Below, piece by piece: positions 29,013-42,777 of a stretch of DNA of 64,000 nt. Position 1 is the stretch's first letter; each line of letters opens with the position of its first letter. The translations under genes were made by a program, and so were the position numbers. Source of the DNA: Zetaproteobacteria bacterium (lineage in GTDB: Bacteria > Pseudomonadota > Zetaproteobacteria > Mariprofundales > Mariprofundaceae); contig RFFT01000036.1 in assembly GCA_003696795.1 (NCBI GenBank), forward strand, positions 5,128 through 69,127, read 5' to 3'. The notes below the pieces were generated by a model. It did no database searches. It was not told where the DNA came from and saw nothing but the letters and a program-made list of their open reading frames with translations.

Positions 29013-31379
29013 CTAGGAAGCGTCCGGGCAAAAGGCAACCCGTACCAACGCGCTGAACGCATCCGGCGAGAACGGCTTCTGGATGAAGCCGGCCAGCCTC
29101 TTGCCCTTGAAATGCGCGGTCGCTTCCTCCTCGCTGTAGCCACTGGTCAGAATCACGCGCACATCCGGATCGATGCGGCACAGCTCGCGATAGCAGGTCT
29201 TGCCATCCATGCGTGGCATGGTCATATCCAGCACCACCCCGGTGATATCGCGATGATGCGCGCGGAACAGTTCGACGGCACGCTCCCCATCCTCCGCCTG
29301 CAGCACATCAAACCCCATCTCGGACAGGATCAAGCAGGCCAATTCGCGAATCGCCTGCTCATCGTCGACAACCAGCACCAGCCCGCTCAAGCCGCCAGGC
29401 AGCGGCGCCTCCGGCTCGGCGGAAGTGATGGCCGGACACTCGCCTTCGGCAAGCGCGGGAAACAGGACGCGAATCGTCGTGCCGTCCCCCGGCTCGCTAT
29501 ACACGCGGATCGCGCCATGATGCCCGCGCACGATCCCCAACATCGCACTCATTCCCAGCCCACGGCCAGTAAACTTGGTCGTGAAGAATGGATCGAACAT
29601 CTGACGCTGGGTATCCTTGTCCATGCCACAACCGGTATCCGACACCTCGAGATAGACATAGCGGCCCGGCTTCGCCTGCTCATCCGCAATCGAGTCCGCA
29701 AGATAGGCCCGATCAACCTCCATCACCCCGGTGGCCAGCGCAATCACGCCCGGCTGCTCGCCGATCGCCTCGTTGGCATTGGTAATCAGGTTCATGATTA
29801 CCTGTTGCAATTGCGCCTGATCCCCCTCGATGGCCGGCAGCGCGACGGACAGGCGATAACGAAGGCTGATCTGCTTGCCGATCGACACATCCAGCAGCAT
29901 GGCCATCTCGCGCACCAACCGCGACAAGTCCAGCCGCTTGAGCACGAACGCCCCCTTGCCCGAATAGGCCAGCATTTGCTGGCACAAGTCCGCCGCGCGC
30001 TTCGCGCTCTGCTCAATACGCGCCAGTTTTTCATGCGCCGGCGACTCCGGCGGCAGCGCCCGTCGGGCCAGCGACGCATTGCCCATCACCGCGGTCAGGA
30101 TGTTGTTGAAGTCGTGCGCAATGCCGCCGGCCAAAACACCCAGGCTCTCCAGCCGTTGCGCGTGCTCCAGGCGCGCCGCGCGTTCGCGCGCCTCGGTGAC
30201 ATCGTGAAACACAAGCACCCGCCGTTTGCCATCCTCGCCTGCCGGCGCAATACTGTATTCTACGCATAAACCATCGCCCGACTTGGTCACCAGCGCGGCC
30301 TCGCCGCGGTGTGTATCGCGGTCGGCCAGCGCCTGACTCATATCGCCGCAACATGCCTGATCCCGCGCGCCGGACAGGCAGTCCACCGACCTGCCGATCA
30401 GCTCGTCTGCGCGGTAGCCGGTCAGCGCCTCGGCGGCGGCGTTGAGATAACGGATGGTCAGCGATTCATCCAAAATCAGCACCGCCTCGGCGGCATGTTT
30501 CAAGGCCATGGCCAGCACCGCGTTCTCATCGCGTACGTCCCTCAATGCCGCCATCTCCTCTTGCAGTCGCGCATGCGCCGCATCACGCGCACGCAGGGAA
30601 AGATGCAGATGCCGCAGCAACCAAGCCATGTATGCGACGAGCAGCAGCACCAGCGCGATCAACCCCAGGCGATTGCGCCGCACATCCTCCATATAGCGCG
30701 CATGAAACGCCTCGAACGCCTTACCCACCAACGCAACGTTTTCCGGCGTGCCACAATGCACCGCGGTATCCATCTCGCGCCGCAAATGCGTCAAGCGGTC
30801 GAGCATCACATGCACATGCCGCCCCAGAACCGCCAGGGCCGGATCCCGCTCCAGCCGAGCGCGCGCACGCTCGATTCGGGCCTTCAGGAATCGGTTGTCC
30901 GGCTCCAGCAGCAACTGATAGGCATCGCGATTCAGCCGCAGCAATGCCTGCGCATGCACACCATCCCTCGCCACGGCCTGTTCCACCAGCGTGGCCAGAT
31001 AGCGCTGGGAATTCATCATGATCCCCAGGTCGCGTTTGAAGTGATCGATCGCGTCCAGTTGCGTACCGACCGACGCACGCAACGCCCGCAGCGCATCCGC
31101 CAGTTGCAACCCGGCCAGCAGTTGCTCCAGCGAACGCTCGGTCTCGGCCAGCGCGGCGGCATCGCGGGTCCGGTCATCGAAGTGCGCCAGGCGCCGGTTG
31201 AACAGCAACAACATCCCCTCTTCGCTTTGCGTGTCCAGCCGCAGCACCCGCTCAAGCAATGCATGCACCCGCGCATAGCGCGCGGCATCGAAGCTGCTCA
31301 AATGGCGATACTGCATCAGCGCAACCACGGCGAGCATGAGCAGCAGCGCCCAGTGCGCGCGCATGCCGAACCGCTTCAC
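29013..31379 (-). CDS. hybrid sensor histidine kinase/response regulator with a periplasmic all-helical sensor domain, PAS, HisKA, HATPase and REC
   Basis: TM1 AHWALLLMLAVVALM, a periplasmic helical region of about 200 aa, then TM2 LGLIALVLLLVAYMAWLL. PAS, H-box GGIAHDFNNIL, G-boxes DTGCGMD and GRGLGMS. REC: LVVDDE...VLDMTMPRMDG...IQKPF. Confidence 0.88.
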   Translation of the reverse strand: MKRFGMRAHWALLLMLAVVALMQYRHLSSFDAARYARVHALLERVLRLDTQSEEGMLLLFNRRLAHFDDRTRDAAALAETERSLEQLLAGLQLADALRALRASVGTQLDAIDHFKRDLGIMMNSQRYLATLVEQAVARDGVHAQALLRLNRDAYQLLLEPDNRFLKARIERARARLERDPALAVLGRHVHVMLDRLTHLRREMDTAVHCGTPENVALVGKAFEAFHARYMEDVRRNRLGLIALVLLLVAYMAWLLRHLHLSLRARDAAHARLQEEMAALRDVRDENAVLAMALKHAAEAVLILDESLTIRYLNAAAEALTGYRADELIGRSVDCLSGARDQACCGDMSQALADRDTHRGEAALVTKSGDGLCVEYSIAPAGEDGKRRVLVFHDVTEARERAARLEHAQRLESLGVLAGGIAHDFNNILTAVMGNASLARRALPPESPAHEKLARIEQSAKRAADLCQQMLAYSGKGAFVLKRLDLSRLVREMAMLLDVSIGKQISLRYRLSVALPAIEGDQAQLQQVIMNLITNANEAIGEQPGVIALATGVMEVDRAYLADSIADEQAKPGRYVYLEVSDTGCGMDKDTQRQMFDPFFTTKFTGRGLGMSAMLGIVRGHHGAIRVYSEPGDGTTIRVLFPALAEGECPAITSAEPEAPLPGGLSGLVLVVDDEQAIRELACLILSEMGFDVLQAEDGERAVELFRAHHRDITGVVLDMTMPRMDGKTCYRELCRIDPDVRVILTSGYSEEEATAHFKGKRLAGFIQKPFSPDAFSALVRVAFCPDAS

Positions 31380-32388
31380 CGTTCACGCCTCCCGAAGTTT
31401 TCCGGCGCAAGCCAAATGCGCTCTTTAGGCTCCAGCGACCTACCTTGATACTCGCCGACCAGCGAATACAGGAAGGCGATGATGGCGCGAAGATCGCGCT
31501 CCGGAATCTCGCGTCCAAGCTGATAGCGCGCCATGGTGCGAATCGCGCCGGCCAATGTGCGCTGGCTGCCGTCATGAAAATAGGGCGCGGTCAAAACCGC
31601 CAAGCGCAAGGATGGAACCTTGAACACATGCATATCCTCCGCCTTGCCGGTCACATTGAAACGCCCGCGATCGATCGCGCGATCGCTGGGATGGTCGGCG
31701 AAATAGTCGCCCATCACGCCGAGCACCTGAAACAGATTGCCGCCCACATTGCGTCCCTGATGACACGCCACGCAACCATAGGACTTGAACAGCGCATAGC
31801 CCCGCTTTGCCTCCGCGCTGATCGCGTTCGTATCGCCAAGCAGATAGCGATCGAAGCGCGCGCCGGTCGTAATCAGCGTGCGCTCGAACTCGGCGATCGC
31901 CCGTTTGATGCGTGCTGCGGTGATCCCGCCGCCGAACACGCGCCTAAATGCCCGCCGATATTCGGCATCGGCGCGAAGGCGCGCCACCACCGCAGGCCAG
32001 CGGTTGGCCATCTCGGCATGCCCGGTGACCGGTCCGTCGATCTGCGCCTCCAGGCTCGCCGCGCGCCCATCCCAAAACTGGGCCAGGTTCAGCGCCGCAT
32101 TGAACACGGTCGGGCTGTTGGCCTCGCCCTCTCGCCCGTTGACACCGAACGAATGCGCAAGCCCATCCGCGCCGCCCATATCCTTGATGTCATGACAATG
32201 CGCGCAGGAAATCGAATTGTCGACGGACAGACGCGTATCGAAGAACAGCTTGCGCCCCAGCGCGGCGCGCGCCTTGTCCACCGGCAACGCTTCCAGCGGC
32301 TGGATGGGTTCCACATTGAGATCGACCGCACCCGCATGCGCAATGGACAGCCAGCCAACCGCCAGCGCGATCCATACCCGGCTAAGCA

Positions 32389-32392
<4 letters not shown>
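31376..32392 (-). CDS. di-haem cytochrome c peroxidase (CCP/MauG family)
   Basis: Signal peptide plus two CxxCH motifs (CAHCH, CVACH). Both its start and its stop overlap neighbours by ATGA. Confidence 0.88.
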
Positions 32393-33216: not shown

Positions 33217-34902
33217 CTAACCCCCGCCAGCGTGCAACGAAAGCCCGCTCAACAATCCGATCAAGGCGGCATTGTAATCAATGGCCGGTTCGTTCGTCGC
33301 ATAGGAGCGCGCATCATCCGCATAGCTGTACACCCCGCGTCCTCGCGGCGCCACGCCGTCCTGCGCACCTTGGTTCGGACCGCCGACCAAAAAGCCCGGC
33401 GCATGCTCCGCCCAGCGCATATGCGGATGACGCACACTGACCTCGCCGACCCCGGTCACAAAAGAACGACCAAACGGATTGCGTCCAAGCAAAAAGTCCG
33501 CCTGCCATTGCGCAGCAGTGAGATAGTCGCGATTCCCGCTCAACCGGTAGGCCGCAAGCAAGGTGTTGCCATGTTCAGCGGCGACCTTGTTCGATCCCCA
33601 AATAAAACGGGTATCGGCCAGCCCGTAGGGATTGTCCCTGCTGCGTTGCAACAAGGACGACGCGCGCGCCAACAGCAGTCGACGCAATCTGGCCGCAAGC
33701 GCATGGTCCACATCGGAGAGCATCAAATAATGCACAACCCCAAGCGGCGCCGGATTCTTCCAACCAAAATAGGTGTAGCGAACCGCTGGCGCATAACGCC
33801 GGATCGCGCGCGCAAAACGCGCCTCACCAGTAAGACGGAACAGCTCAACCGCGGCCCAGAAACGATCGTCCTGATCGGTACGCAGGGTTTCCTCGTTGTC
33901 GATCGCGGAATACAGGTACTTGCCCGATCCACTGTCGTCACCCTCGTGCCACGCCACTTCCTGCTTCTTGATTCCCAGCAGCGAATCCCAGGCGGCCAAC
34001 GCCGCATGCCGATAGCGTGCGGCGCGCGCATGATCGAAAGGCAAGTATATACGCGCCGCCATAGCCATCGCAGCGGCAAACTTCGCCGTATCCGAACTGG
34101 CCGGTGCGAACAGGAAGCGTGGCTGCCGATCTCCCACCGGCGATCCGTGCGGCGGCCAGCGCTTCCCCGAAAGTTTGCGATAGACCGCCCCGTCCGGTCG
34201 CTGCATGCGCAGCATCCAATCCAGCTCCACCGCGATCTCGTCCAGCATGTCCGGCAGCCCGTTGCCGCTCTCTGGAATATGCAGCCAACCATCACCGCGC
34301 AAGCGCGCGTCTTGCTCAAAAGCATCGAGCAGACGCGCGACCGTGACCGAAGCGGTGGCGATATATTTCCCGAAATCGCCCGCATCATGCCATCCACCAT
34401 GGGCATCGACCCGAGTCCCGGCGGCATGCCAGCGGTCCGCATGCGCAATCCGGCCATCCCGCTGGTGGCAAGCCGCATGTCCAAGGCCGGTTTCGCGATC
34501 GGCCACGGCTTGTCCACAGCGCTGCAAATAATAGCTGCGCAACAGCAGGCGCAGCAGCGGACGATAGACATCATGCGCCACATGAAGCACAGGCGAACGC
34601 ATGCCGGCACCCTCGATGCGATAGCGCCCGGATTTAAGCGCGGAAACATCGAGCCGCCACACGGGCTGGTCGGCCCATGGATCACGCGCCGCGGCATGCG
34701 CCTCAAGCCGCATAAGCGGCTTTCCGCTGGACAGATCCAGCACGCGCAGCGCCCCGTCCGGCTTGGGCGCATGCACGATCAGCACCTCCTTCACCGCCTC
34801 CGGCGTATATCCCTGCTGGTTGAGCACAATCACCCCGGCGTTCGCCGAAACCGGCAACAGACCGACAAACGCGAGCCCGGCAAGCCTCCGCATCCTAGGC
34901 AA
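33217..34902 (-). CDS. secreted glycoside hydrolase family 9 (endoglucanase-type) with an N-terminal Ig-like domain
   Basis: Signal peptide MPRMRRLAGLAFVGLLPVSANA. GH9 signature HGGWHDAGDFGKY. FWAAVELF and GGPN near the C-terminus. Confidence 0.8.
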   Translation of the reverse strand: MPRMRRLAGLAFVGLLPVSANAGVIVLNQQGYTPEAVKEVLIVHAPKPDGALRVLDLSSGKPLMRLEAHAAARDPWADQPVWRLDVSALKSGRYRIEGAGMRSPVLHVAHDVYRPLLRLLLRSYYLQRCGQAVADRETGLGHAACHQRDGRIAHADRWHAAGTRVDAHGGWHDAGDFGKYIATASVTVARLLDAFEQDARLRGDGWLHIPESGNGLPDMLDEIAVELDWMLRMQRPDGAVYRKLSGKRWPPHGSPVGDRQPRFLFAPASSDTAKFAAAMAMAARIYLPFDHARAARYRHAALAAWDSLLGIKKQEVAWHEGDDSGSGKYLYSAIDNEETLRTDQDDRFWAAVELFRLTGEARFARAIRRYAPAVRYTYFGWKNPAPLGVVHYLMLSDVDHALAARLRRLLLARASSLLQRSRDNPYGLADTRFIWGSNKVAAEHGNTLLAAYRLSGNRDYLTAAQWQADFLLGRNPFGRSFVTGVGEVSVRHPHMRWAEHAPGFLVGGPNQGAQDGVAPRGRGVYSYADDARSYATNEPAIDYNAALIGLLSGLSLHAGGG

Positions 34903-37486
34903 GCAACGGTGGCGCCTGGCGCGCGCGCAACATTTCGGTGATCTTGGCAGCCGAGGCCGGACGCCCGAAATAGTATCCCTGTGCCTCGTCGCAGCCGAAT
35001 TCGCGCAGGAACTTCAACTGCGCCGCGTTTTCCACACCTTCGGCCAGCACGCGCAAATTCAACGTCTTGGCCATGGCCATGATCGTGATCGCGATCGCCG
35101 CATCCAGGTCATCGCTGGGCAAGCCACGCACAAAGGAGCGATCGATCTTCAGGGTGTCGATATCGAAGCGCTTGAGATAGGCAAGCGACGAATAGCCGGT
35201 GCCAAAATCATCCAATGCCAGGCTGGCGCCGAGCGCCTTCATGCGCTTGAGCACCGCCATGCAATCGTCCGGGTCCTCCATCAACGCGCTTTCGGTCAAT
35301 TCCAACTCGAGCATGCCCGGCTCCAGTGCATGACGACGCAACACCTCGCCAAGATAATGGGGCAGCCCCTGATCATGCAATTGCACGGCGGACAGGTTGA
35401 CCGCCATGCGCACGTTCATCCCCTGCCGACGCCATGCGGCCTGTTGCCGGCAGGCTTCCTCCAGCACCCAGGCGCCAAGCGGCACGATCAGCCCCGACGC
35501 CTCGGCCACCTCAATGAATTCGCCCGGATTCATCAGCCCCTGTTCCGGGTGATGCCAGCGCACCAGCGCCTCGACCCCAACGATATGGCCATTGGCCAGT
35601 TCCACCTGCGGCTGGTAATACAGTTCGAGCTGCCGCTGCTCCAGCGCCCGCGCCAACGCCTGCCGGATGCGCTGGCGACGCCGCACTCGCTGGCGCATCT
35701 CCTCGGCAAAGAACGCGTAACGCCGCGGCGCCTTCTGCGCCCCCTCAAGCGCAATCGAAGCCTGCCTGAGCAGCACCTCGGGCTCGGCGGCATCCTCGGG
35801 AAAGCGGCTGATCCCGATCCGCACATGCAACTGCATATTGCTTCCCTGCCAGGCCACGGCCTGCTGCATGGCACGCTGAATCTCCTCGATCATGCGCTCG
35901 ACAGCCGCCAGCTGGCGCACCCCGCGCAACAGAAGCGCGAACTCGTCGCCGCCCAGGCGGGCCACGCAATGGCGCGCCCCGAGTGTGGCACGCAACTGCC
36001 CCGCCACCAGTTGCAGAACCGCATCGCCGACCGTATGCCCGAACATCTCGTTGACCAGCTTGAACTCGTCGATATCGCACAGCACAACGGCAAGCCCCTC
36101 CCCCGCCGCCTTCGCCTCCTCGATCGCCGTGCTCAACTCGTCGAGAAACAGGGTGCGGTTGGGCAGGTTGGTCAAGGCGTCATAGTGCGCCAAGCGCTGG
36201 GTCTGCAGTTCGGCCAGCTTGCGGTCCGTTATATCCGCGAACGAGATCACCTGATGCCGCAGCCGTCCCGCCCCATCGCGCACCCACACAATGCTCCGCC
36301 ATTCGGGAAACGTTTCGCCGCTCTTGCGCCGGCTCCACAACTCGCCCTGCCAAACCCCGTCGCGGCTCAATGCCTCTTTTTGGGCGCGAAAAAAAGCCTC
36401 GTTCTGCCGCCCGGAATCGAGGATATCCAGCATCGCCCCTTCCGCCTCCCGCGCCGGATAGCCGGTAATGGTCGTGAACGCGCGATTGACACGCAAAATC
36501 CGCCCCGACGCATCGACGATCATGATCGCCAGGGGGCTTTCGCGAAACACCGACGCGGCCAACTGCAGATCCGCCATCGCTTGCCGATATTGCTCGGCAA
36601 GCAATACATGCGCGACCTGGTCGGCAAGTTCTCCCGCGAACGCGATTTCGTCCGCCTGCCATTCGCCCGCGCCATCCCGCGCAAAGATCGCAAGCCCCAT
36701 AAGCTCGCCCATCACGCGCACACCCGCGGCCAGCCATGATCCCGCCCGCGCGGGAACCAACGCGCTGACAACATCGCGTTCCGCCTCGTCCACCGCCAAC
36801 ACGCCCTGCATCTCGACCGAGTCCAGGCACGATTGCGCATCGCCCAACGCGACCGCGGGAAGCGCCTCCGCCTCACCCCACGCCTGCACGCAGTGCAGCC
36901 GCCGACGTTCATCATCCATGCGCCATATGCGCACAGCATCGAGCGCCAATGCGCGCGCAGCCGTGTCGCACAGGCAGGCAAGCTTGGCGGACACATCGGG
37001 CGCATCCTTCAAGCCGCGCGCCAGCGCCCGCATCGCCGCGTGCCTGGCCGCCTGTCGCGCCTCCATGGCGCGCGCGCGCTGTTCCATCCGCCAGCGCTCG
37101 GTGATATCCCGCGCGATGCCGAGAATGCCATCGAATCGGCCATCCGCGAACAAGGCCACGCTGTCCACCTCGGCCATGAAACGCTGTCCCTGCGCGCCAA
37201 CGATGCCCAACCGGTAGCGCGTATGCCGTGTCCGGCCCTGCTGTTTATCGGCGAACATCCGCTCGGCCAACGGAACATCCCCGTCCGCCACAAAATGTCG
37301 GAACGCGCGCCCCAACGCCTGCTCGCGGCGATAACCGAGCTTGGCCAGCGCCGCGTCGTTGATCATGCTCAAGCAACCCGTCGCATCGAGACGGAACACG
37401 AAATCGTCGAACATGTTCCAGAACGTGTCATCGTCAACCATCGTGCCGGCGCGACCGGAAAGCCCGCGCTTATCGTCCGCCATCAT
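34895..37486 (-). CDS. PAS-GAF-PAS-GGDEF-EAL signalling protein (diguanylate cyclase/phosphodiesterase)
   Basis: RLGGDEFALL (intact GGDEF), EALVRW, DDFGTGYSSL, and the PAS/GAF region upstream. The start is uncertain (37543, 37486 or 37441). Confidence 0.88.
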   Translation of the reverse strand: MMADDKRGLSGRAGTMVDDDTFWNMFDDFVFRLDATGCLSMINDAALAKLGYRREQALGRAFRHFVADGDVPLAERMFADKQQGRTRHTRYRLGIVGAQGQRFMAEVDSVALFADGRFDGILGIARDITERWRMEQRARAMEARQAARHAAMRALARGLKDAPDVSAKLACLCDTAARALALDAVRIWRMDDERRRLHCVQAWGEAEALPAVALGDAQSCLDSVEMQGVLAVDEAERDVVSALVPARAGSWLAAGVRVMGELMGLAIFARDGAGEWQADEIAFAGELADQVAHVLLAEQYRQAMADLQLAASVFRESPLAIMIVDASGRILRVNRAFTTITGYPAREAEGAMLDILDSGRQNEAFFRAQKEALSRDGVWQGELWSRRKSGETFPEWRSIVWVRDGAGRLRHQVISFADITDRKLAELQTQRLAHYDALTNLPNRTLFLDELSTAIEEAKAAGEGLAVVLCDIDEFKLVNEMFGHTVGDAVLQLVAGQLRATLGARHCVARLGGDEFALLLRGVRQLAAVERMIEEIQRAMQQAVAWQGSNMQLHVRIGISRFPEDAAEPEVLLRQASIALEGAQKAPRRYAFFAEEMRQRVRRRQRIRQALARALEQRQLELYYQPQVELANGHIVGVEALVRWHHPEQGLMNPGEFIEVAEASGLIVPLGAWVLEEACRQQAAWRRQGMNVRMAVNLSAVQLHDQGLPHYLGEVLRRHALEPGMLELELTESALMEDPDDCMAVLKRMKALGASLALDDFGTGYSSLAYLKRFDIDTLKIDRSFVRGLPSDDLDAAIAITIMAMAKTLNLRVLAEGVENAAQLKFLREFGCDEAQGYYFGRPASAAKITEMLRARQAPPLLA

Positions 37487-37916
37487 CGCCGTCTGTCTCG
37501 GTCTTGCCGTCAAGACGCGCCTGGCCCACCCGACCCAGCACATGCCGCACCCGCTCGATCAGCGTGTCGGCATCAACCGGCTTGACCAGCACGTCGCGCG
37601 CACCACCCTCGATCGCCAAGGTGCGCGAATCGCGATCATCCAGCGCGGTGACCATGATCACCGGAATCGACGCCGTCGCCGCATCTGCCTTAAGCCGCCG
37701 CAACACATCGAACCCGCTGACGCGCGGCATCAGCACATCGAGCAGAATCAGGTCCGGCTGCCACTGCGGCGCGCGGGCCAACGCCGCCTCGCCGCTGTCC
37801 GCCGTTTCCACCTCCACCCCGGGGATGCGCTGCAACAGACCCTCCAGCAGCAGGCGATTCGAGGGATGATCATCCACCACGAGCACCTTCAACCCCTGTT
37901 TCCTTCCCTCATCCAT
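37470..37916 (-). CDS. single-domain response regulator (CheY-like)
   Basis: VLVVDDHP...LILLDVLMPRVSG...VIMVTA...VLVKPV. Its start overlaps the upstream CheY stop by 8 nt. Confidence 0.85.
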   Translation of the reverse strand: MDEGRKQGLKVLVVDDHPSNRLLLEGLLQRIPGVEVETADSGEAALARAPQWQPDLILLDVLMPRVSGFDVLRRLKADAATASIPVIMVTALDDRDSRTLAIEGGARDVLVKPVDADTLIERVRHVLGRVGQARLDGKTETDGDDGGR

Positions 37917-38286
37917 GTCGGCCGGCCTCCAGCATGTCGCGCACCCGCGCGCGCAGTGCATCGATCTCGAACGGTTTGCTGATATAGCCGTCAAACCCCT
38001 CGGCCAACAACTGTTCCTCCTCGCCCAGCATCGCGCATGCCGTCAACGCCACCACCGGAATATCGCGCGTGCGCGCATCCGCCCGAATGCGCGCCAGGGC
38101 CGCCGGCCCGTCCAGCCCGGGCATGCGCACATCCAGCAACACCAGATCCGGTCGCTCGGCAATGGTCAACGCCACCGCCTGTTCTCCATCCGCGGCAGTC
38201 AACACCCGATGCCCGTCCAGTTTCAGTACATCCCGGGCCAGTTCCAGGTTAAGTGCCTCATCGTCGGCAACCACAATGCAACTCAT
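37909..38286 (-). CDS. single-domain response regulator (CheY/DivK-like)
   Basis: IVVADDE...LVLLDVRMPGLDG...VVALTA...GFDGYISKPF. Its start overlaps the kinase stop (ATGA). Confidence 0.88.
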   Translation of the reverse strand: MSCIVVADDEALNLELARDVLKLDGHRVLTAADGEQAVALTIAERPDLVLLDVRMPGLDGPAALARIRADARTRDIPVVALTACAMLGEEEQLLAEGFDGYISKPFEIDALRARVRDMLEAGRHG

Positions 38287-41006
38287 GACTGATCCTCACT
38301 CACACAGCAATCGCCGCCCGCCGCAACGGCTCGTTGCACGCGCTGTTGCAGGCGCGCAAGCATCGCCTCGGAATCCACCTCGCCCTCGCGCACATGAACG
38401 CAGCCGAATGACGCGGTCAGACATCCTTTCGCCTGGCCGGCCAGCGGGAAGCGATGCAGCCGGATGCGCAAGCGCACCTTCTCCGCGACCCGCCGCGCCT
38501 CCTCCAGCGAAATGCCGGGCAAAACCAGCACGAACCCGGCCTCCTCGCTGCGCACCAACACATCGCCCTTGCGAATAATCGCATAGACGATCTCCACCAT
38601 GTCCTTCAACGCCGCAACGGCCCAACGCATGCCGTGCCGTCGCATATATGCCTCATAGCCGTCAAGCCGCCAACCGACCAGCGCAAATTGCTGACCATAA
38701 CGCTCGGTACGGCTGCATTCCTGCTTCAACCTCCGCCTCAGGTAACGAGGGTTGTAGCAGCGCAGCACACTGTCCATCAACCGCGCTTGCGCGGGATACA
38801 TCATCTCCAGCGTACGCAGCTCGCGCAGCAGCTCCTCGCGACTGGTCGTCCCCTTGGACAGCACCTGCTCGACCTCGCGCCCCAAACGCATGACCTCCGC
38901 GCGCGTCAAGTCCTTGGCGGTAAACACGATCACCGGAATATCGCGGGCGGTGGGATGCCGCTTGAGCGCATCGACCACATCGAAGCCGCTCATGTCCGGC
39001 ATCATCAAATCGAGAATGATCAAGTCCGGCTCATGCTCGATGGCCGCGCGCAAGCCATCCTTCCCACGCGCGGCCAACAGGATACGGTACCCCTGCCCGT
39101 GCAGCGCCTCCTTGATGTATTCGCGCACACACGCATCGTCATCGATAACCAAAATGGTCATCACCCGCGGGCGCGCGCCGAAGCGGTCGTGACGCGCGAT
39201 CATATCCACCAGTTCGGTCCGCGTGAGCCGCTTGTCCACCGTATCGACGGTCCCCAGCGAAAAACGCGGCGCCTGCGCGTCACCACCGAGCAGCACCAAC
39301 GAAGCTCCGCGTGTCGCCTTGCTGTTGCGCAGTCGACTCATGCGTCGATAGACATCGGCGGGATCCTTGGGCAGGCCGACCATGATCAGGAACGGCGCCC
39401 GCTCGGCGGCCATGCGTTCCACCTCATCCAACGCGCAAATACTCGCCGTATAGCTCTCCCGCTCCAAAATTTCGACCACCCGCGCCGCCCGCGCATGGTC
39501 ATCGTCCACAATCAGGATATGGGGCAGGACATCCGACGCATCCGCGGCCTCCTCGACCACCTGCACACCCGCGTCCGCCTCGTCCGCCACCGCTGGGGCT
39601 TGCGCCGCGACATCCAACGCGCGTACCGGGCGCGCGGGCAACGAGAACGTAAAGCGGCTGCCCTCGCCGGGGACGCTTTCAACCTCGATGTCCCCTCCCT
39701 GGATCTCCAGCATGCGGCGCACCAGGGCAAGCCCCAGTCCGGTGCCTCCATAGCTACGGGCCAGCCCGCCGTCCACCTGCACGAACGGCTCGAAAATACG
39801 TTCCAGGTCTTCCTTGGCGATGCCGATTCCGTTGTCCCGCACATATCCTTCCAGCACGGTTTCGCCATTGCGCTCCAGCAGCCCATACCCCGCCACAATC
39901 TCCCCCCCTTCGGGGGTGAACTTGATCGCGTTGCCAATCAATTGCATCCACACCTGCCGCAGCTTGACCGCATCGAGATACAACGCATGGTCGTCGTCCG
40001 GTCGCCGTACCGCAATGCGTTGCGCCTTGCGCTCGGCCATGGGCTTCAGTTGCGTGAGCACTTCGTCCAACACCATGCCCACGCTGCACGCCTCCTCATG
40101 AATCTCCATCATGCCCGACTCGATCTTGGACAAATCGAGCAGGCCGTTGATCAGCTCCAGCAATTGCTTGCCCGCCTGGTTGATATGCTCGAGATAGGTG
40201 CGTTGCCTGCGCTCGTCGATGCTCGCGCGCGGACTGAGCAGCAGATCGGAAAATCCGATGATCGCATTCAATGGCGTACGCAATTCGTGGCTGGTATTGG
40301 CCAAAAATTGACTCTTTGCCTCATTCGCCTGTCGCAACGCCTCGTTCATCAGTTCCAATTCGATTTCACGGTTGCGCAACAAGCGGTTCGCGCGTTCGAT
40401 TTCGCGCGCATGCTCCTGCATATGGCGCACGCGCTCCTCGCTCGCCTGTCTCAGGCGTTCAAGCTTCTGCAGGTTGGACAGCGCCATCGCGCATGCCGCA
40501 GCCAGGATGCGCACCAACCCCTCGTCGTCCCCGTCGAAACATCCACCGCCACGCTTGTCGCACAGATACAGCGCGCCCATGATCTGGCCAGCGAACTCGA
40601 TCGGCGCGCCGAGCAGACAACGCATCGGCGGATGATGTTCGGGAAAACCGGAGAACGCCTCATGCGCGCCGATCTCGTCGATACGCACAACCCTGCCTTC
40701 ACGCCAAATCAGGCCGAGCAGCCCTTTTCCCTCGGGCGGACGCCCAATGGCGTCGATCGTGCGCTGACTCATGCCCAGCGACACAAAACGCAGCTCGCCC
40801 TCCTCCATCCAGGCAAGCATCGCGTAGCGAGCCTGGGTGACACGCTGCGCAAGCCCCGCCACGCGCTTGAGCATGGTGGCCTGATCCTCGGCCGAGGAGA
40901 GGGTAAACATGGCCTCGGCGATCGCCTGCTCGCGCCGAACCTGGCGCCTCAGGCGCGCATGCAACGCCTCCGCGGAGCTCAGGGCAGACGCGCCATCCTT
41001 GGGCAT
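38283..41006 (-). CDS. cytoplasmic GAF - HisKA/HATPase - pseudo-receiver - receiver - degenerate GGDEF multidomain sensor kinase
   Basis: H-box SHELRTPLNAIIGF. G-boxes DNGIGI and GGTGLGLALV. REC1 lacks the acceptor Asp (FLIMVGLP). REC2 is canonical (LIILDLMMPDMSG...FTAKD). The C-terminal GGDEF-like domain carries SEEAGF in place of GGDEF. The start was chosen at MPKDGAS, 1 nt after the upstream stop. Confidence 0.85.
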   Translation of the reverse strand: MPKDGASALSSAEALHARLRRQVRREQAIAEAMFTLSSAEDQATMLKRVAGLAQRVTQARYAMLAWMEEGELRFVSLGMSQRTIDAIGRPPEGKGLLGLIWREGRVVRIDEIGAHEAFSGFPEHHPPMRCLLGAPIEFAGQIMGALYLCDKRGGGCFDGDDEGLVRILAAACAMALSNLQKLERLRQASEERVRHMQEHAREIERANRLLRNREIELELMNEALRQANEAKSQFLANTSHELRTPLNAIIGFSDLLLSPRASIDERRQRTYLEHINQAGKQLLELINGLLDLSKIESGMMEIHEEACSVGMVLDEVLTQLKPMAERKAQRIAVRRPDDDHALYLDAVKLRQVWMQLIGNAIKFTPEGGEIVAGYGLLERNGETVLEGYVRDNGIGIAKEDLERIFEPFVQVDGGLARSYGGTGLGLALVRRMLEIQGGDIEVESVPGEGSRFTFSLPARPVRALDVAAQAPAVADEADAGVQVVEEAADASDVLPHILIVDDDHARAARVVEILERESYTASICALDEVERMAAERAPFLIMVGLPKDPADVYRRMSRLRNSKATRGASLVLLGGDAQAPRFSLGTVDTVDKRLTRTELVDMIARHDRFGARPRVMTILVIDDDACVREYIKEALHGQGYRILLAARGKDGLRAAIEHEPDLIILDLMMPDMSGFDVVDALKRHPTARDIPVIVFTAKDLTRAEVMRLGREVEQVLSKGTTSREELLRELRTLEMMYPAQARLMDSVLRCYNPRYLRRRLKQECSRTERYGQQFALVGWRLDGYEAYMRRHGMRWAVAALKDMVEIVYAIIRKGDVLVRSEEAGFVLVLPGISLEEARRVAEKVRLRIRLHRFPLAGQAKGCLTASFGCVHVREGEVDSEAMLARLQQRVQRAVAAGGDCCVSEDQS

Positions 41007-41007
41007 T

Positions 41008-41589
41008 TCAAACGGTATGGGATATGCGTCGTCGGAACGCGCGGGTGGCTTCCAGCGCAATGCGCAACTCACCCAGCTGCACCGGCTTGCCCAGCACCAC
41101 ATCGGCCTGCTGCCGCAGTTTGCGCCGAATCTCCGGCCGATCATAGCCTGCGGTGATCACGATGATATCCATATCCCCGCGCAATTCGTCATCGGCGCGC
41201 AAGCGACGCAGCACCTCCAGCCCATCGATGCCGGGCATGAAGATATCGAGCAACAGGATGTCCGGCCGCCAGCGTCCAATCTCGACCAGACCGGTATAGC
41301 CGTCCTCCACGGACTTGACCTCCGCGTCGGGCCAGCACTGCTTCGTCATATCGCTGAGCAGCATGCACACGGAAGGCTCGTCATCCACGATCAGCACGCG
41401 CAGCGGACGCCCCATGTCCAGCATGCCGCGTTCGCGCATGAACGCCTCCAGAGAGGCTTCAGGGATGCGCCAATGCCCACCGGGTGTCTGCACCCCCTGC
41501 AGCAGACCATTGGCGATCCAACGTTTTACGGTATTGAGTCCGACACCGAGTCGGCGGGCGACATCGCCCGTAGTAAGATATCCAGCCAT
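41008..41589 (-). CDS. DNA-binding response regulator with an N-terminal excisionase/MerR-type HTH and a C-terminal receiver
   Basis: LTTGDVARRLGVGLNTVKRWIANGLL...GGHWRI (HTH_17-like), followed by VLIVDDEP...ILLLDIFMPGIDG...VITAG...VLGKPV. Confidence 0.8.
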   Translation of the reverse strand: MAGYLTTGDVARRLGVGLNTVKRWIANGLLQGVQTPGGHWRIPEASLEAFMRERGMLDMGRPLRVLIVDDEPSVCMLLSDMTKQCWPDAEVKSVEDGYTGLVEIGRWRPDILLLDIFMPGIDGLEVLRRLRADDELRGDMDIIVITAGYDRPEIRRKLRQQADVVLGKPVQLGELRIALEATRAFRRRISHTV

Positions 41590-41608
41590 GCGCGAAGTCT
41601 AGCCAGGG

Positions 41609-42577
41609 CTAGGCGAGGGAGCAAGAGGATTGGATGTTTTTCTCGTTTTGGATGCTTGACACCATGCGCGCCACCTCATCCCGCGTCATGCCTTCCTCCG
41701 CCAACAAACGACACAGCGTTTGCGCAAACGCCCGCCGCAGCTCCGCCACCTGCCCTTCCCGAAGGCGACCGCGCGCATGCGCGATACGCAAGGCGATCTC
41801 AAAGCCCTCCGAATCGACACGCGCCTTGCGCCGGTAAAACTCACCCCCCATTCGGCGCCGGGAATGCGACCCACGCACACCACTCGGGATGCGGTATCCC
41901 GCCGGAATCGAGCGAATGAAATAAAACCTTCGCCCCGCCGCGGCGTAGCGCATCCAGGTATGAAAGTCCTCGGACACATGGTAGGCGGGAAACGGTTGAC
42001 GCAGCGCCAGCGCGATGCGCACGCTGGTTGCCGAGGTCAGGTTCACATAGCCGCTGCGCAGCCCCATCTCAAGCCATACATCCTCTCCCGTCGGCGGACG
42101 GCGCAATGCGGACTGAATCTGCCGAATGGAGGGGCTGAGCCTGGCTGCGGGCACGGTACGACCCAACTCGTCGATCACGCGAAACGGACTATAGACCACG
42201 TCCACCCGTCGATGACGCGCAAACACGGCGCGCGTGCGCACCAGTCGCGCCGGATGCGCGGTATCGTCGGCGTCGAGAAACAGGGCGATTTCAGCTCCCA
42301 GACGCGCCGCATAACGCAAGGCGCGGTTGCGACAATAACCGGGGCCGCGGCGCGCGCGGTTGTACAACACATGGATACGTTCCGGAAAACGTGCGCGCAA
42401 GGCGTTGAGTTCCACCCGCACGCCCGCATCGGGAGACGCGTCATCGACCAACACCAAACGCCAGCGATCATCCGTTTGCGCAAACAACGAGGCGATGGCG
42501 GCACGCAACCATCGTCGCCCCAAGGGGTGCTCCCGATAATGCGGCATGATGAAGCAAGCATCCGGCATGCAGCGCAT
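41609..42577 (-). CDS. family-2 glycosyltransferase (soluble GT-A type)
   Basis: FIMPHYRE (the IPxYN position), LVLVDDASPD, FLDADD. The ORF's listed N-terminus runs through the tRNA and terminator, so the start must be at or below 42598. I chose 42577 but cannot resolve it further. Confidence 0.72.
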   Translation of the reverse strand: MRCMPDACFIMPHYREHPLGRRWLRAAIASLFAQTDDRWRLVLVDDASPDAGVRVELNALRARFPERIHVLYNRARRGPGYCRNRALRYAARLGAEIALFLDADDTAHPARLVRTRAVFARHRRVDVVYSPFRVIDELGRTVPAARLSPSIRQIQSALRRPPTGEDVWLEMGLRSGYVNLTSATSVRIALALRQPFPAYHVSEDFHTWMRYAAAGRRFYFIRSIPAGYRIPSGVRGSHSRRRMGGEFYRRKARVDSEGFEIALRIAHARGRLREGQVAELRRAFAQTLCRLLAEEGMTRDEVARMVSSIQNEKNIQSSCSLA

Positions 42578-42610: not shown

Positions 42611-42636
42611 AAAAAGAAAGCGCCCCGATGGGGCGC
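42611..42636 (-). terminator. rho-independent terminator after tRNA-Thr
   Basis: On the minus strand: GCGCCCC-atc-GGGGCGC followed by TTTCTTTTT. Confidence 0.6.
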
Positions 42637-42643
42637 CAAACCG

Positions 42644-42719
42644 TGGAGCCGATGAGCGGACTCGAACCGCTGACCTGCTCATTACGAGTGAGCTGCTCTA
42701 CCAGCTGAGCTACATCGGC
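42644..42719 (-). tRNA. tRNA-Thr (anticodon CGU), CCA encoded
   Basis: Minus strand GCCGATG-TA-GCTC-AGCTGGTA-GAGC-A-GCTCA-CTCGTAA-TGAGC-AGGTC-AGCGG-TTCGAGT-CCGCT-CATCGGC-T-CCA. All four stems are fully paired and the anticodon loop reads CT-CGT-AA. Confidence 0.9.
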
Positions 42720-42777
42720 ATCGCCAGCAAGCGACGGGCGCGCATTGTAGCGCGAGAATTCGAATGCTCAATGAAAA

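Follow-up and report, generated by a model that had tools for sequence, protein, structure and literature searches.

Two routes by which cyclic di-GMP (c-di-GMP) acts on a histidine kinase have been described. SgmT of Myxococcus xanthus carries a GGDEF domain with a dead active site (A-site) and a live inhibitory site (I-site), a combination that is the signature of GGDEF-type c-di-GMP receptors, and its binding of c-di-GMP was shown experimentally (PMC3509222). In ShkA of Caulobacter crescentus, which has a catalytic and ATP-binding (CA) domain, a pseudo-receiver and a receiver in that order, c-di-GMP releases autoinhibition (PMC7010744). A pan-genome study of the Zetaproteobacteria found a general enrichment of c-di-GMP signalling domains (PMC8250860). 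Here we analysed a 64-kb stretch of DNA (the window) from a 1.55-Mb Mariprofundaceae (Zetaproteobacteria) assembly, which comprises 107 contigs and is 97.5% complete. On the minus strand of the window, positions 33217-42577 hold seven consecutive open reading frames (ORFs), with domains verified by Pfam (Table 1). In order of transcription these encode a GT2 glycosyltransferase, an HTH_17-REC regulator, a hybrid histidine kinase, two single-domain receivers (CheY1 and CheY2), a GGDEF-EAL enzyme and a secreted GH9 glycoside hydrolase. The reading that we favour, and hold to be reasonably probable, is that the middle five genes are a signalling cassette lying between two unrelated genes, with a kinase that is gated by c-di-GMP and forms a loop with the neighbouring enzyme.

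Conservation of the cassette among relatives

We surveyed 401 sampled genomes of the phylum for orthologs of the kinase. Full-length orthologs were found in 35 of these, this genome counted. The positive genomes belonged to the Mariprofundaceae (32/109) and to a sister family of the same order (2/3), with no others among the sampled genomes of the phylum, and the named relatives of the kinase were from the Mariprofundaceae and other Zetaproteobacteria. Gene neighbourhoods were then compared at 25 ortholog loci, 23 of which held enough sequence for the regulator to be tested. A CheY1 ortholog was located immediately 3' of the kinase gene at all 25 loci, and also in all seven extra contexts. An HTH_17-REC ortholog was located immediately 5' of the kinase gene at 19 of the 23 testable loci, and also in the Ferrovum-like contigs described below. 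Clustering of flanking ORFs from 26 loci revealed no conserved neighbour besides the receivers, the kinase and the GGDEF-EAL enzyme. CheY2 and the enzyme were added only in the clade nearest to this genome (57-60% identity). The five-gene form was present in G001, G169 and G314 and in the metagenome contigs L166 and L167 (one contig ends inside the enzyme gene), each with a GGDEF-EAL ortholog 3' of CheY2. CheY2 orthologs were found in these five and in G296, whose contig stops just past CheY2.

Phylogenetic trees of the kinase, CheY1 and the regulator divided into the same two clades. The receiver tree resolved five clean orthogroups, CheY1 and CheY2 being separate ones, and the CheY1, regulator and kinase receivers were each split into the same two clades. 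Matching clade splits of this kind are the pattern expected if regulator, kinase and CheY1 were inherited as a unit. On these comparisons the three genes appear to be a core triad, with CheY2 and the GGDEF-EAL enzyme as an extension in the closest clade, and the five-gene cassette appears to have been inherited, gained or lost as a block.

In the congener G001, the five-gene cassette is located between a TPR-sulfotransferase gene and a convergent pgl gene. In G002, also a congener, the TPR-sulfotransferase gene and pgl abut with no cassette between them. The difference between the two is a clean presence or absence of 9.5 kb (L013 7165-16715 in G001 versus L075 6655-6682 in G002). No kinase ortholog was found in congeners G002, G003 and G004. 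None of the genes around the G001 cassette (pgl-zwf-gnd, mog and the TPR-sulfotransferase gene) was found in the 64-kb window.

Outside the Zetaproteobacteria, the same triad was found in Ferrovum myxofaciens (Betaproteobacteria), where the kinase is 55% identical and divergent genes for a REC-HD-GYP protein and a methyl-accepting chemotaxis protein (MCP) adjoin the triad. Two related assemblies have the same arrangement, and a fourth, Ferrovum-like contig has the REC-HD-GYP gene after CheY1 on the same strand. The kinases of Ferrovum and its relatives (L161, L162, L164 and L168) are 54-56% identical to the copy in the window, and most Mariprofundaceae copies are 43-50% identical to it. In the kinase tree, the Ferrovum group was nested in the clade that holds this genome's copy. 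Since the Ferrovum kinases are closer than most Mariprofundaceae copies, the comparison suggests that the triad was exchanged horizontally between two lineages of iron-oxidisers. An enzyme that degrades c-di-GMP or is bifunctional thus adjoins the triad in two lineages, although the type of enzyme differs between them. REC-HD-GYP in the Ferrovum-like relatives could be phosphorylated directly. Among the genomes and contigs searched, the cassette was essentially confined to the Zetaproteobacteria and Ferrovum.

The kinase, its C-terminal module and the neighbouring enzyme

To compare the kinase with its orthologs, motifs were aligned for 26 of them. The H-box SHELRTP was invariant. All 26 have Gly at the phospho-Asp position of the pseudo-receiver and retain the Asp of the second receiver; all 26 likewise have a degenerate and variable GGDEF A-site with an RxxD motif five residues upstream. 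In the kinase from the window, RKGD is followed by five residues and then by EEAGF. Across 38 relatives that are 41-66% identical to this copy, G544, D666, K718, R812, D815 and K843 were invariant. A phmmer search of the Protein Data Bank (PDB) with the C-terminal 418 residues returned PleD as the best match, in two stretches. In this alignment, RKGD corresponds to R359xxD362 of PleD and EEAGF to its GGEEF, and K843, counted along the alignment, is at the position of R390. The linker between the two receivers has the consensus ISRHGR followed by a variable stretch, and no DDR motif was found in it.

An AlphaFold2 model of the kinase (mean predicted local distance difference test (pLDDT) 78.7; predicted template modelling score (pTM) 0.44) contained three folds: one like a receiver but without helix alpha-4, one of a canonical receiver and one of a GGDEF domain. 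The first of these, the pseudo-receiver, was modelled as a receiver-like alpha/beta fold with pLDDT ~80-89. The top nine Foldseek matches were all PleD structures, with E-values of 9e-27 to 3e-24 over ~460 columns that cover all three domains; the TM-score was low (0.38), which reflects the uncertain domain orientation (pTM 0.44). Together, the alignments and the model indicate that the C-terminal half of the kinase is a PleD-like module of pseudo-receiver, receiver and GGDEF domain. Its cyclase site appears to be dead, and its predicted c-di-GMP I-site (R812xxD815 and K843) is invariant. Because a degenerate A-site is combined with an invariant RxxD, as in SgmT, c-di-GMP is probably an input to the kinase, which would act as a c-di-GMP sensor.

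The kinase, CheY1, CheY2 and the regulator together hold five receivers, of which one, the first in the kinase, is degenerate; the DD, D, T/S and K residues are retained in the remaining four. The regulator scored above the cut-off for the TIGR01764 'excise' domain, and its HTH_17 domain is of the excisionase/MerR type. A PDB search with the regulator returned generic receiver matches only and no characterised HTH_17-REC protein, and a literature search for response regulators of the HTH_17 or excisionase type gave nothing relevant. Four histidine phosphotransfer (Hpt) domains, none of them in the cassette, and ten GGDEF domains were found in this genome.

In the translated GGDEF-EAL enzyme, the motifs GGDEF, EAL, DDFGTGYSS, KID, EGVE and QGY are all intact. 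The best NCBIfam match of the enzyme was the phosphodiesterase DibA, at 599 bits and hence under the 980-bit cut-off. The enzyme has no RxxD I-site and no receiver domain; the phosphorelay therefore cannot feed it directly, and CheY2 would be needed as a go-between. CheY2 was the best match (41.5%) of the receiver in REC-HD-GYP. The sensor set of the enzyme evidently changes quickly. The G001 enzyme (L013 12756-16715) has 1319 amino acids (aa) with an extra N-terminal PAS-PAS-GAF, and a metagenomic relative has 889 aa. An N-terminal truncation of the enzyme in the window was considered, but as the metagenomic relative is also short, the change may have gone in either direction.

An earlier, sequence-only reading of this DNA had counted one kinase core, five receivers (one degenerate), an active-looking and a degenerate GGDEF domain and one EAL domain, with which the motifs agree. 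Its link to c-di-GMP turnover holds in that GGDEF-EAL or REC-HD-GYP genes recur next to the triad. It had placed the phosphorelay upstream of c-di-GMP turnover. The invariant I-site points in the opposite direction, from c-di-GMP into the kinase, and the lack of a receiver leaves the relay no direct feed into the enzyme.

Full-length orthologs of the kinase are 1147-1269 aa long. In these, a loop of ~150-210 aa, probably periplasmic, is enclosed by two hydrophobic segments and followed by a HAMP domain wherever checked, and several match the PilJ sensor model. The kinase in the window has no hydrophobic segment and no HAMP domain. It lacks the N-terminal ~295 aa of its relatives and begins at the GAF domain, 1 nucleotide (nt) past the stop codon of the regulator gene. 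When the whole assembly was searched with the missing N-terminal part, just two marginal matches (E ~0.005) were obtained, both to the HAMP end. This copy is located on a long branch in the kinase tree. It retains 159 of the 162 family-invariant positions, compared to a range of 97.5-100% in other members. It looks like a working cytoplasmic variant rather than a pseudogene. Short kinases were also found elsewhere, namely a clade of ~900-aa proteins and a 60%-identical relative with an 850-aa kinase closely after the regulator. Since short soluble forms occur in other lineages, the short form would be a viable state, and the soluble kinase appears to have arisen more than once in the family. 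The ~900-aa proteins (P0103-P0118, locus L079) are monophyletic, come from Mariprofundus-type contigs and lack the transmembrane sensor and HAMP domain.

The packed array and its flanking genes

The GT2 gene is restricted to the genus, where it was found in 4/4 congeners. In G002, GT2 follows tRNA-Thr(CGT) and the next long ORF is convergent, with no cassette; in G001, GT2 and the cassette are on different contigs. G001 has the order GH9-gmk-spoT-recG; G002 has GH9-gmk-spoT up to the contig end within spoT, and this block is present without the cassette. In G001, the opposite-strand genes pgl-zwf-gnd stand between GH9 and the cassette. GT2 and GH9 thus keep flanking synteny of their own without the cassette, which argues that the array is three units brought together. 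In the seven-gene run, the five-gene cassette would have come into contact with tRNA-Thr and its GT2 on one side and with GH9 and gmk on the other. On this synteny, GT2 appears to belong with tRNA-Thr and GH9 with gmk-spoT-recG, both being mere neighbours of the cassette. Loss of spacers in this small, streamlined genome has probably pressed the cassette against them. Pfam gave GT2 no PilZ or other domain that binds c-di-GMP, and GT2 has no hydrophobic segment that could span a membrane; both features would be looked for in a c-di-GMP-gated polysaccharide synthase of the BcsA or PgaC type.

Several further differences were observed around the GH9 gene. In the window, a di-haem cytochrome c peroxidase gene and a gene for a 788-aa hybrid kinase (29013-32392) lie between gmk and spoT in this genome only; spoT is ~400 nt after gmk in G001 and G002. 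This genome (G000) also has another GH9 paralog on contig C72 (5017-6465, locus L066), with 35% identity to the window's GH9. Besides the two congeners with a GH9 ortholog, one weak GH9 match (31% identity) was found in the 110 other sampled genomes of the family.

Within the array, the junctions are a 19-nt gap from GT2 to the regulator, a 1-nt gap from the regulator to the kinase, a 4-nt ATGA overlap from the kinase to CheY1, an 8-nt overlap from CheY1 to CheY2, a 17-nt overlap from CheY2 to the GGDEF-EAL gene and an 8-nt overlap from there to GH9. Overlaps of 8 nt recur in contig L166. Several of these sizes depend on the chosen start codon, but all stay within ~30 nt under any plausible choice. 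The public gene call starts the kinase at a TTG at 41060, which gives 925 aa. Alternative starts for CheY2 are an in-frame TTG or GTG 24-30 nt downstream, after a purine-rich stretch, and an ATG at ~37440 is a possible start of the GGDEF-EAL gene.

The packing of the window as a whole was assessed with a crude gene call based on GC content at third codon positions (GC3), with a coding coverage of ~95%. The gap was 20 nt or less in 27 of the 36 same-strand neighbour pairs, and nine pairs had an overlap of exactly 4 nt. Six successive tight junctions are about what this genome gives anywhere and therefore say little about a functional unit. A comparison of gap sizes with G001 was discarded, as the GC3-based call covers just 68% of that contig. 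More generally, neither start/stop overlaps nor runs of genes on one strand are enough to define a functional unit in a streamlined genome.

A consensus scan for promoters and terminators gave site counts not above those of shuffled sequence; only the signals of tRNA-Thr stood out, and no terminator-like site was found at any junction of the array. The tRNA-Thr gene has a promoter-like site of its own at 42744-42771 and a strong terminator-like hairpin at 42619-42637 with a T-run. The hairpin and T-run end 13-34 nt ahead of the GT2 start, which leaves practically no space here for a promoter of GT2's own; in G002, tRNA-Thr and GT2 are 257 nt apart. The tRNA was the sole match in an Rfam scan, with no riboswitch or other RNA, and none of the seven proteins reached an NCBIfam equivalog cut-off.

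The genes, domains and co-directional minus-strand order of the sequence-only reading agree with the ORFs and Pfam. Of its junction sizes, the 1-nt gap and the ATGA, 8-nt and ~17-nt overlaps stand, and a gap given as 20 nt reads 19 nt. It had listed these tiny gaps and overlaps as a feature of the array; as described above, they are the background of the window. The six-gene block that it proposed, with comparative genomics as a check, survives in part, since the five signalling genes are kept and recur together but GT2 is unlinked in relatives and neither GT2 nor GH9 belongs. Its connection of the phosphorelay and c-di-GMP to glycan enzymes is not supported by the synteny in G001 and G002, which places both enzymes outside the unit.

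Table 1. Positions in the window of the seven genes, the adjoining tRNA gene and the domains of the kinase and the GGDEF-EAL enzyme
Feature	Position	Strand	Details
tRNA-Thr(CGT)	42644-42719	-	ARAGORN and Rfam
GT2	41609-42577	-	322 aa; Glycos_transf_2 E 2e-19; only GT2 Pfam matches; no hydrophobic segment
HTH_17-REC regulator	41008-41589	-	HTH_17 41428-41580 (N-terminal), E 3e-15; receiver 41053-41397 (C-terminal), Response_reg E 4e-20
Hybrid histidine kinase, 907 aa	38283-41006	-	GAF, HisKA, HATPase_c, pseudo-receiver, receiver, degenerate GGDEF
Kinase GAF	40479-40889	-	GAF_2 E 1e-14
Kinase HisKA	40113-40319	-	E 1e-19; H240 at 40287-40289
Kinase HATPase	39630-39974	-	HATPase_c E 3e-25
Kinase pseudo-receiver, residues ~497-603	39198-39518	-	PF00072 E 0.005 over full model; G544 (39375-39377) replaces phospho-Asp
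Kinase receiver, residues 618-727	38826-39155	-	Pfam; D666 at 39009-39011
Kinase degenerate GGDEF, residues 744-898	38313-38777	-	A-site reads EEAGF
Kinase putative I-site RxxD (R812, D815; RKGD)	38562-38573	-	Alignment to PleD R359xxD362
CheY1, single-domain receiver	37909-38286	-	Response_reg E 5e-26
CheY2, single-domain receiver	37470-37916	-	Response_reg E 6e-29
PAS-GAF-PAS-GGDEF-EAL enzyme, 863 aa	34895-37486	-	EAL E 1e-75; GGDEF E 8e-40
Enzyme domains	PAS 37103-37411; GAF 36608-36976; PAS 36218-36547; GGDEF 35723-36190; EAL 34958-35662	-	Pfam
Secreted GH9 glycoside hydrolase	33217-34902	-	Glyco_hydro_9 E 2e-76; CelD_N domain; N-terminal hydrophobic segment

Proposed mechanism, alternatives and related systems

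In the mechanism that we propose, a ligand on the GAF domain would set autophosphorylation of the kinase at H240. Phosphate would then pass to the HTH_17-REC regulator as the transcriptional output, to CheY1, which would be a phosphate sink or an allosteric modulator, and to D666 in the receiver of the kinase itself. Binding of c-di-GMP at the I-site (R812, D815 and K843) would reposition the C-terminal module on the kinase core, and the kinase output would be gated by the repositioned module in the manner of SgmT, with ShkA as a further analogy. The local level of c-di-GMP would be set by the GGDEF-EAL enzyme in response to inputs through the enzyme's PAS and GAF domains. CheY2 may couple the enzyme back to the kinase, which would close a loop between phosphorylation and c-di-GMP.

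Several observations weigh against this mechanism. Only the adjacency of their genes ties the enzyme to the kinase, and at most loci in the more distant clade, no c-di-GMP enzyme was seen beside the triad. That CheY2 might be a receiver split off from a c-di-GMP enzyme was considered and dropped, as CheY2 and the REC-HD-GYP receiver are not sisters in the receiver tree. The architecture of the regulator is unlike that of DigR, the partner of SgmT. The copy in the window has a long branch in the kinase tree. With four unlinked Hpt domains in the genome, a relay via D666 to an unlinked regulator is possible. Finally, c-di-GMP binding and phosphotransfer are predictions from sequence throughout the kinase family.

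Degenerate GGDEF domains that bind no ligand exist, and the locus could be an ordinary two-component system with an inert GGDEF-type domain. This would fit the absence of a c-di-GMP enzyme near most loci of the more distant clade, and the function of the I-site is a prediction from sequence. However, R812, D815 and K843 are invariant over 38 sequences in which the A-site drifts freely, and two kinds of c-di-GMP enzyme recur beside the triad in two lineages; we consider an inert domain unlikely. It could also be that all six or seven genes are one functional operon, in which a branched phosphorelay controls c-di-GMP turnover together with GT2 and GH9. The array is on one strand throughout, its junctions range from a 19-nt gap to a 17-nt overlap with no terminator-like site, and there is hardly any room for promoters, so that, physically, transcripts of this genome could plausibly read through from GT2 into GH9. 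L167, in addition, has an unrelated GT2 gene 1.5 kb upstream of its cassette. Yet tight junctions are the background state of the genome, and in every relative examined GT2 and GH9 are unlinked to the cassette and have their own flanking synteny. GT2 also lacks a membrane segment and PilZ or any other c-di-GMP-binding domain, and the GGDEF-EAL enzyme lacks a receiver. A single operon of this kind is in our view decidedly unlikely.

The same tight packing would arise merely from deletions if the cassette were a decaying remnant that is being lost in a reduced genome. The kinase lacks its N-terminal ~295 aa and has a long branch, and G002, G003 and G004 have no kinase ortholog. On the other hand, the five ORFs are intact over 6.7 kb, without interruption by a frameshift or stop codon, every catalytic and phospho-acceptor residue is retained, and the 159/162 invariant positions are inside the family range. 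Short soluble forms occur elsewhere, including one whole clade. Of the explanations considered here, decay seems to us very unlikely.

The main iron-oxidisers are the Zetaproteobacteria among neutrophilic marine bacteria and Ferrovum among acidophiles, and both build extracellular stalks or slime. As the cassette was essentially confined to these two groups among the genomes and contigs searched, and its kinase probably reads c-di-GMP directly, it is a testable candidate for a switch between attached and free-living growth in iron-oxidisers, for which the orthologs of M. ferrooxydans and Ferrovum are cultured starting points. A bolder proposal, which we regard as speculative and unlikely to hold in full, is that a self-contained feedback switch was exchanged between marine and acidophilic iron-oxidisers. 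The kinase would both sense c-di-GMP and control the enzymes that turn it over (through CheY2 and GGDEF-EAL, or REC-HD-GYP), and so set sessile growth, with stalks or extracellular polymeric substances (EPS), versus motile growth in both groups. If this were true, the sensor-less copy in a 1.55-Mb genome would demonstrate that the loop needs no periplasmic input.

The kinase is most readily compared to SgmT. As described for SgmT (PMC3509222), it is cytoplasmic and has an N-terminal GAF domain, HisKA and HATPase domains, a receiver and, at its C-terminus, a GGDEF domain, and it is paired with a DNA-binding response regulator. In contrast to SgmT, its ATPase and receiver domains are separated by an additional pseudo-receiver, and most members of its family are membrane-bound with a periplasmic sensor and HAMP domain. 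DigR consists of a receiver and a C-terminal HTH_Xre domain, whereas the regulator here has an N-terminal HTH_17 domain and a C-terminal receiver. SgmT and DigR are encoded by orphan genes; here the genes are adjacent and a single-domain receiver always follows the kinase. No Myxococcus records were among the kinase matches listed in a scan that was made for another purpose.

With ShkA, the kinase shares the order of dimerisation and histidine phosphotransfer (DHp) domain, CA domain, pseudo-receiver and phosphorylatable receiver, as well as c-di-GMP as an input, which is here predicted. ShkA, however, lacks a GGDEF domain, and its c-di-GMP-binding site is on the pseudo-receiver; its DDR linker motif has no counterpart here. 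From ShkA, the signal reaches TacA by way of the Hpt protein ShpA, whereas no Hpt gene is present in this cassette. The C-terminal 418 residues resemble PleD over all three domains in both sequence and fold, and the I-site residues align. The module differs from PleD in its fusion to a histidine kinase and in the reversed order of its receivers, with the pseudo-receiver ahead of the phosphorylatable one; in addition, helix alpha-4 is missing from the predicted pseudo-receiver. PopA, like PleD a REC-REC'-GGDEF protein of Caulobacter, likewise combines a retained I-site with a dead A-site. The neighbouring enzyme is similar to PAS-GGDEF-EAL phosphodiesterases such as DibA and DosP in having GGDEF and EAL domains with intact motifs behind PAS/GAF sensors, but its N-terminal sensor set is different.

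We found no paper on this cassette in the literature, and no curated family covers any of its proteins. The sequence-only reading had held that the wiring is not predictable from known paradigms. This was overstated, since SgmT, ShkA and PleD/PopA each cover a part of it. The cassette joins the two known routes from c-di-GMP to a kinase, the I-site-only GGDEF domain of SgmT and the pseudo-receiver layout of ShkA, in a new combination of domains.

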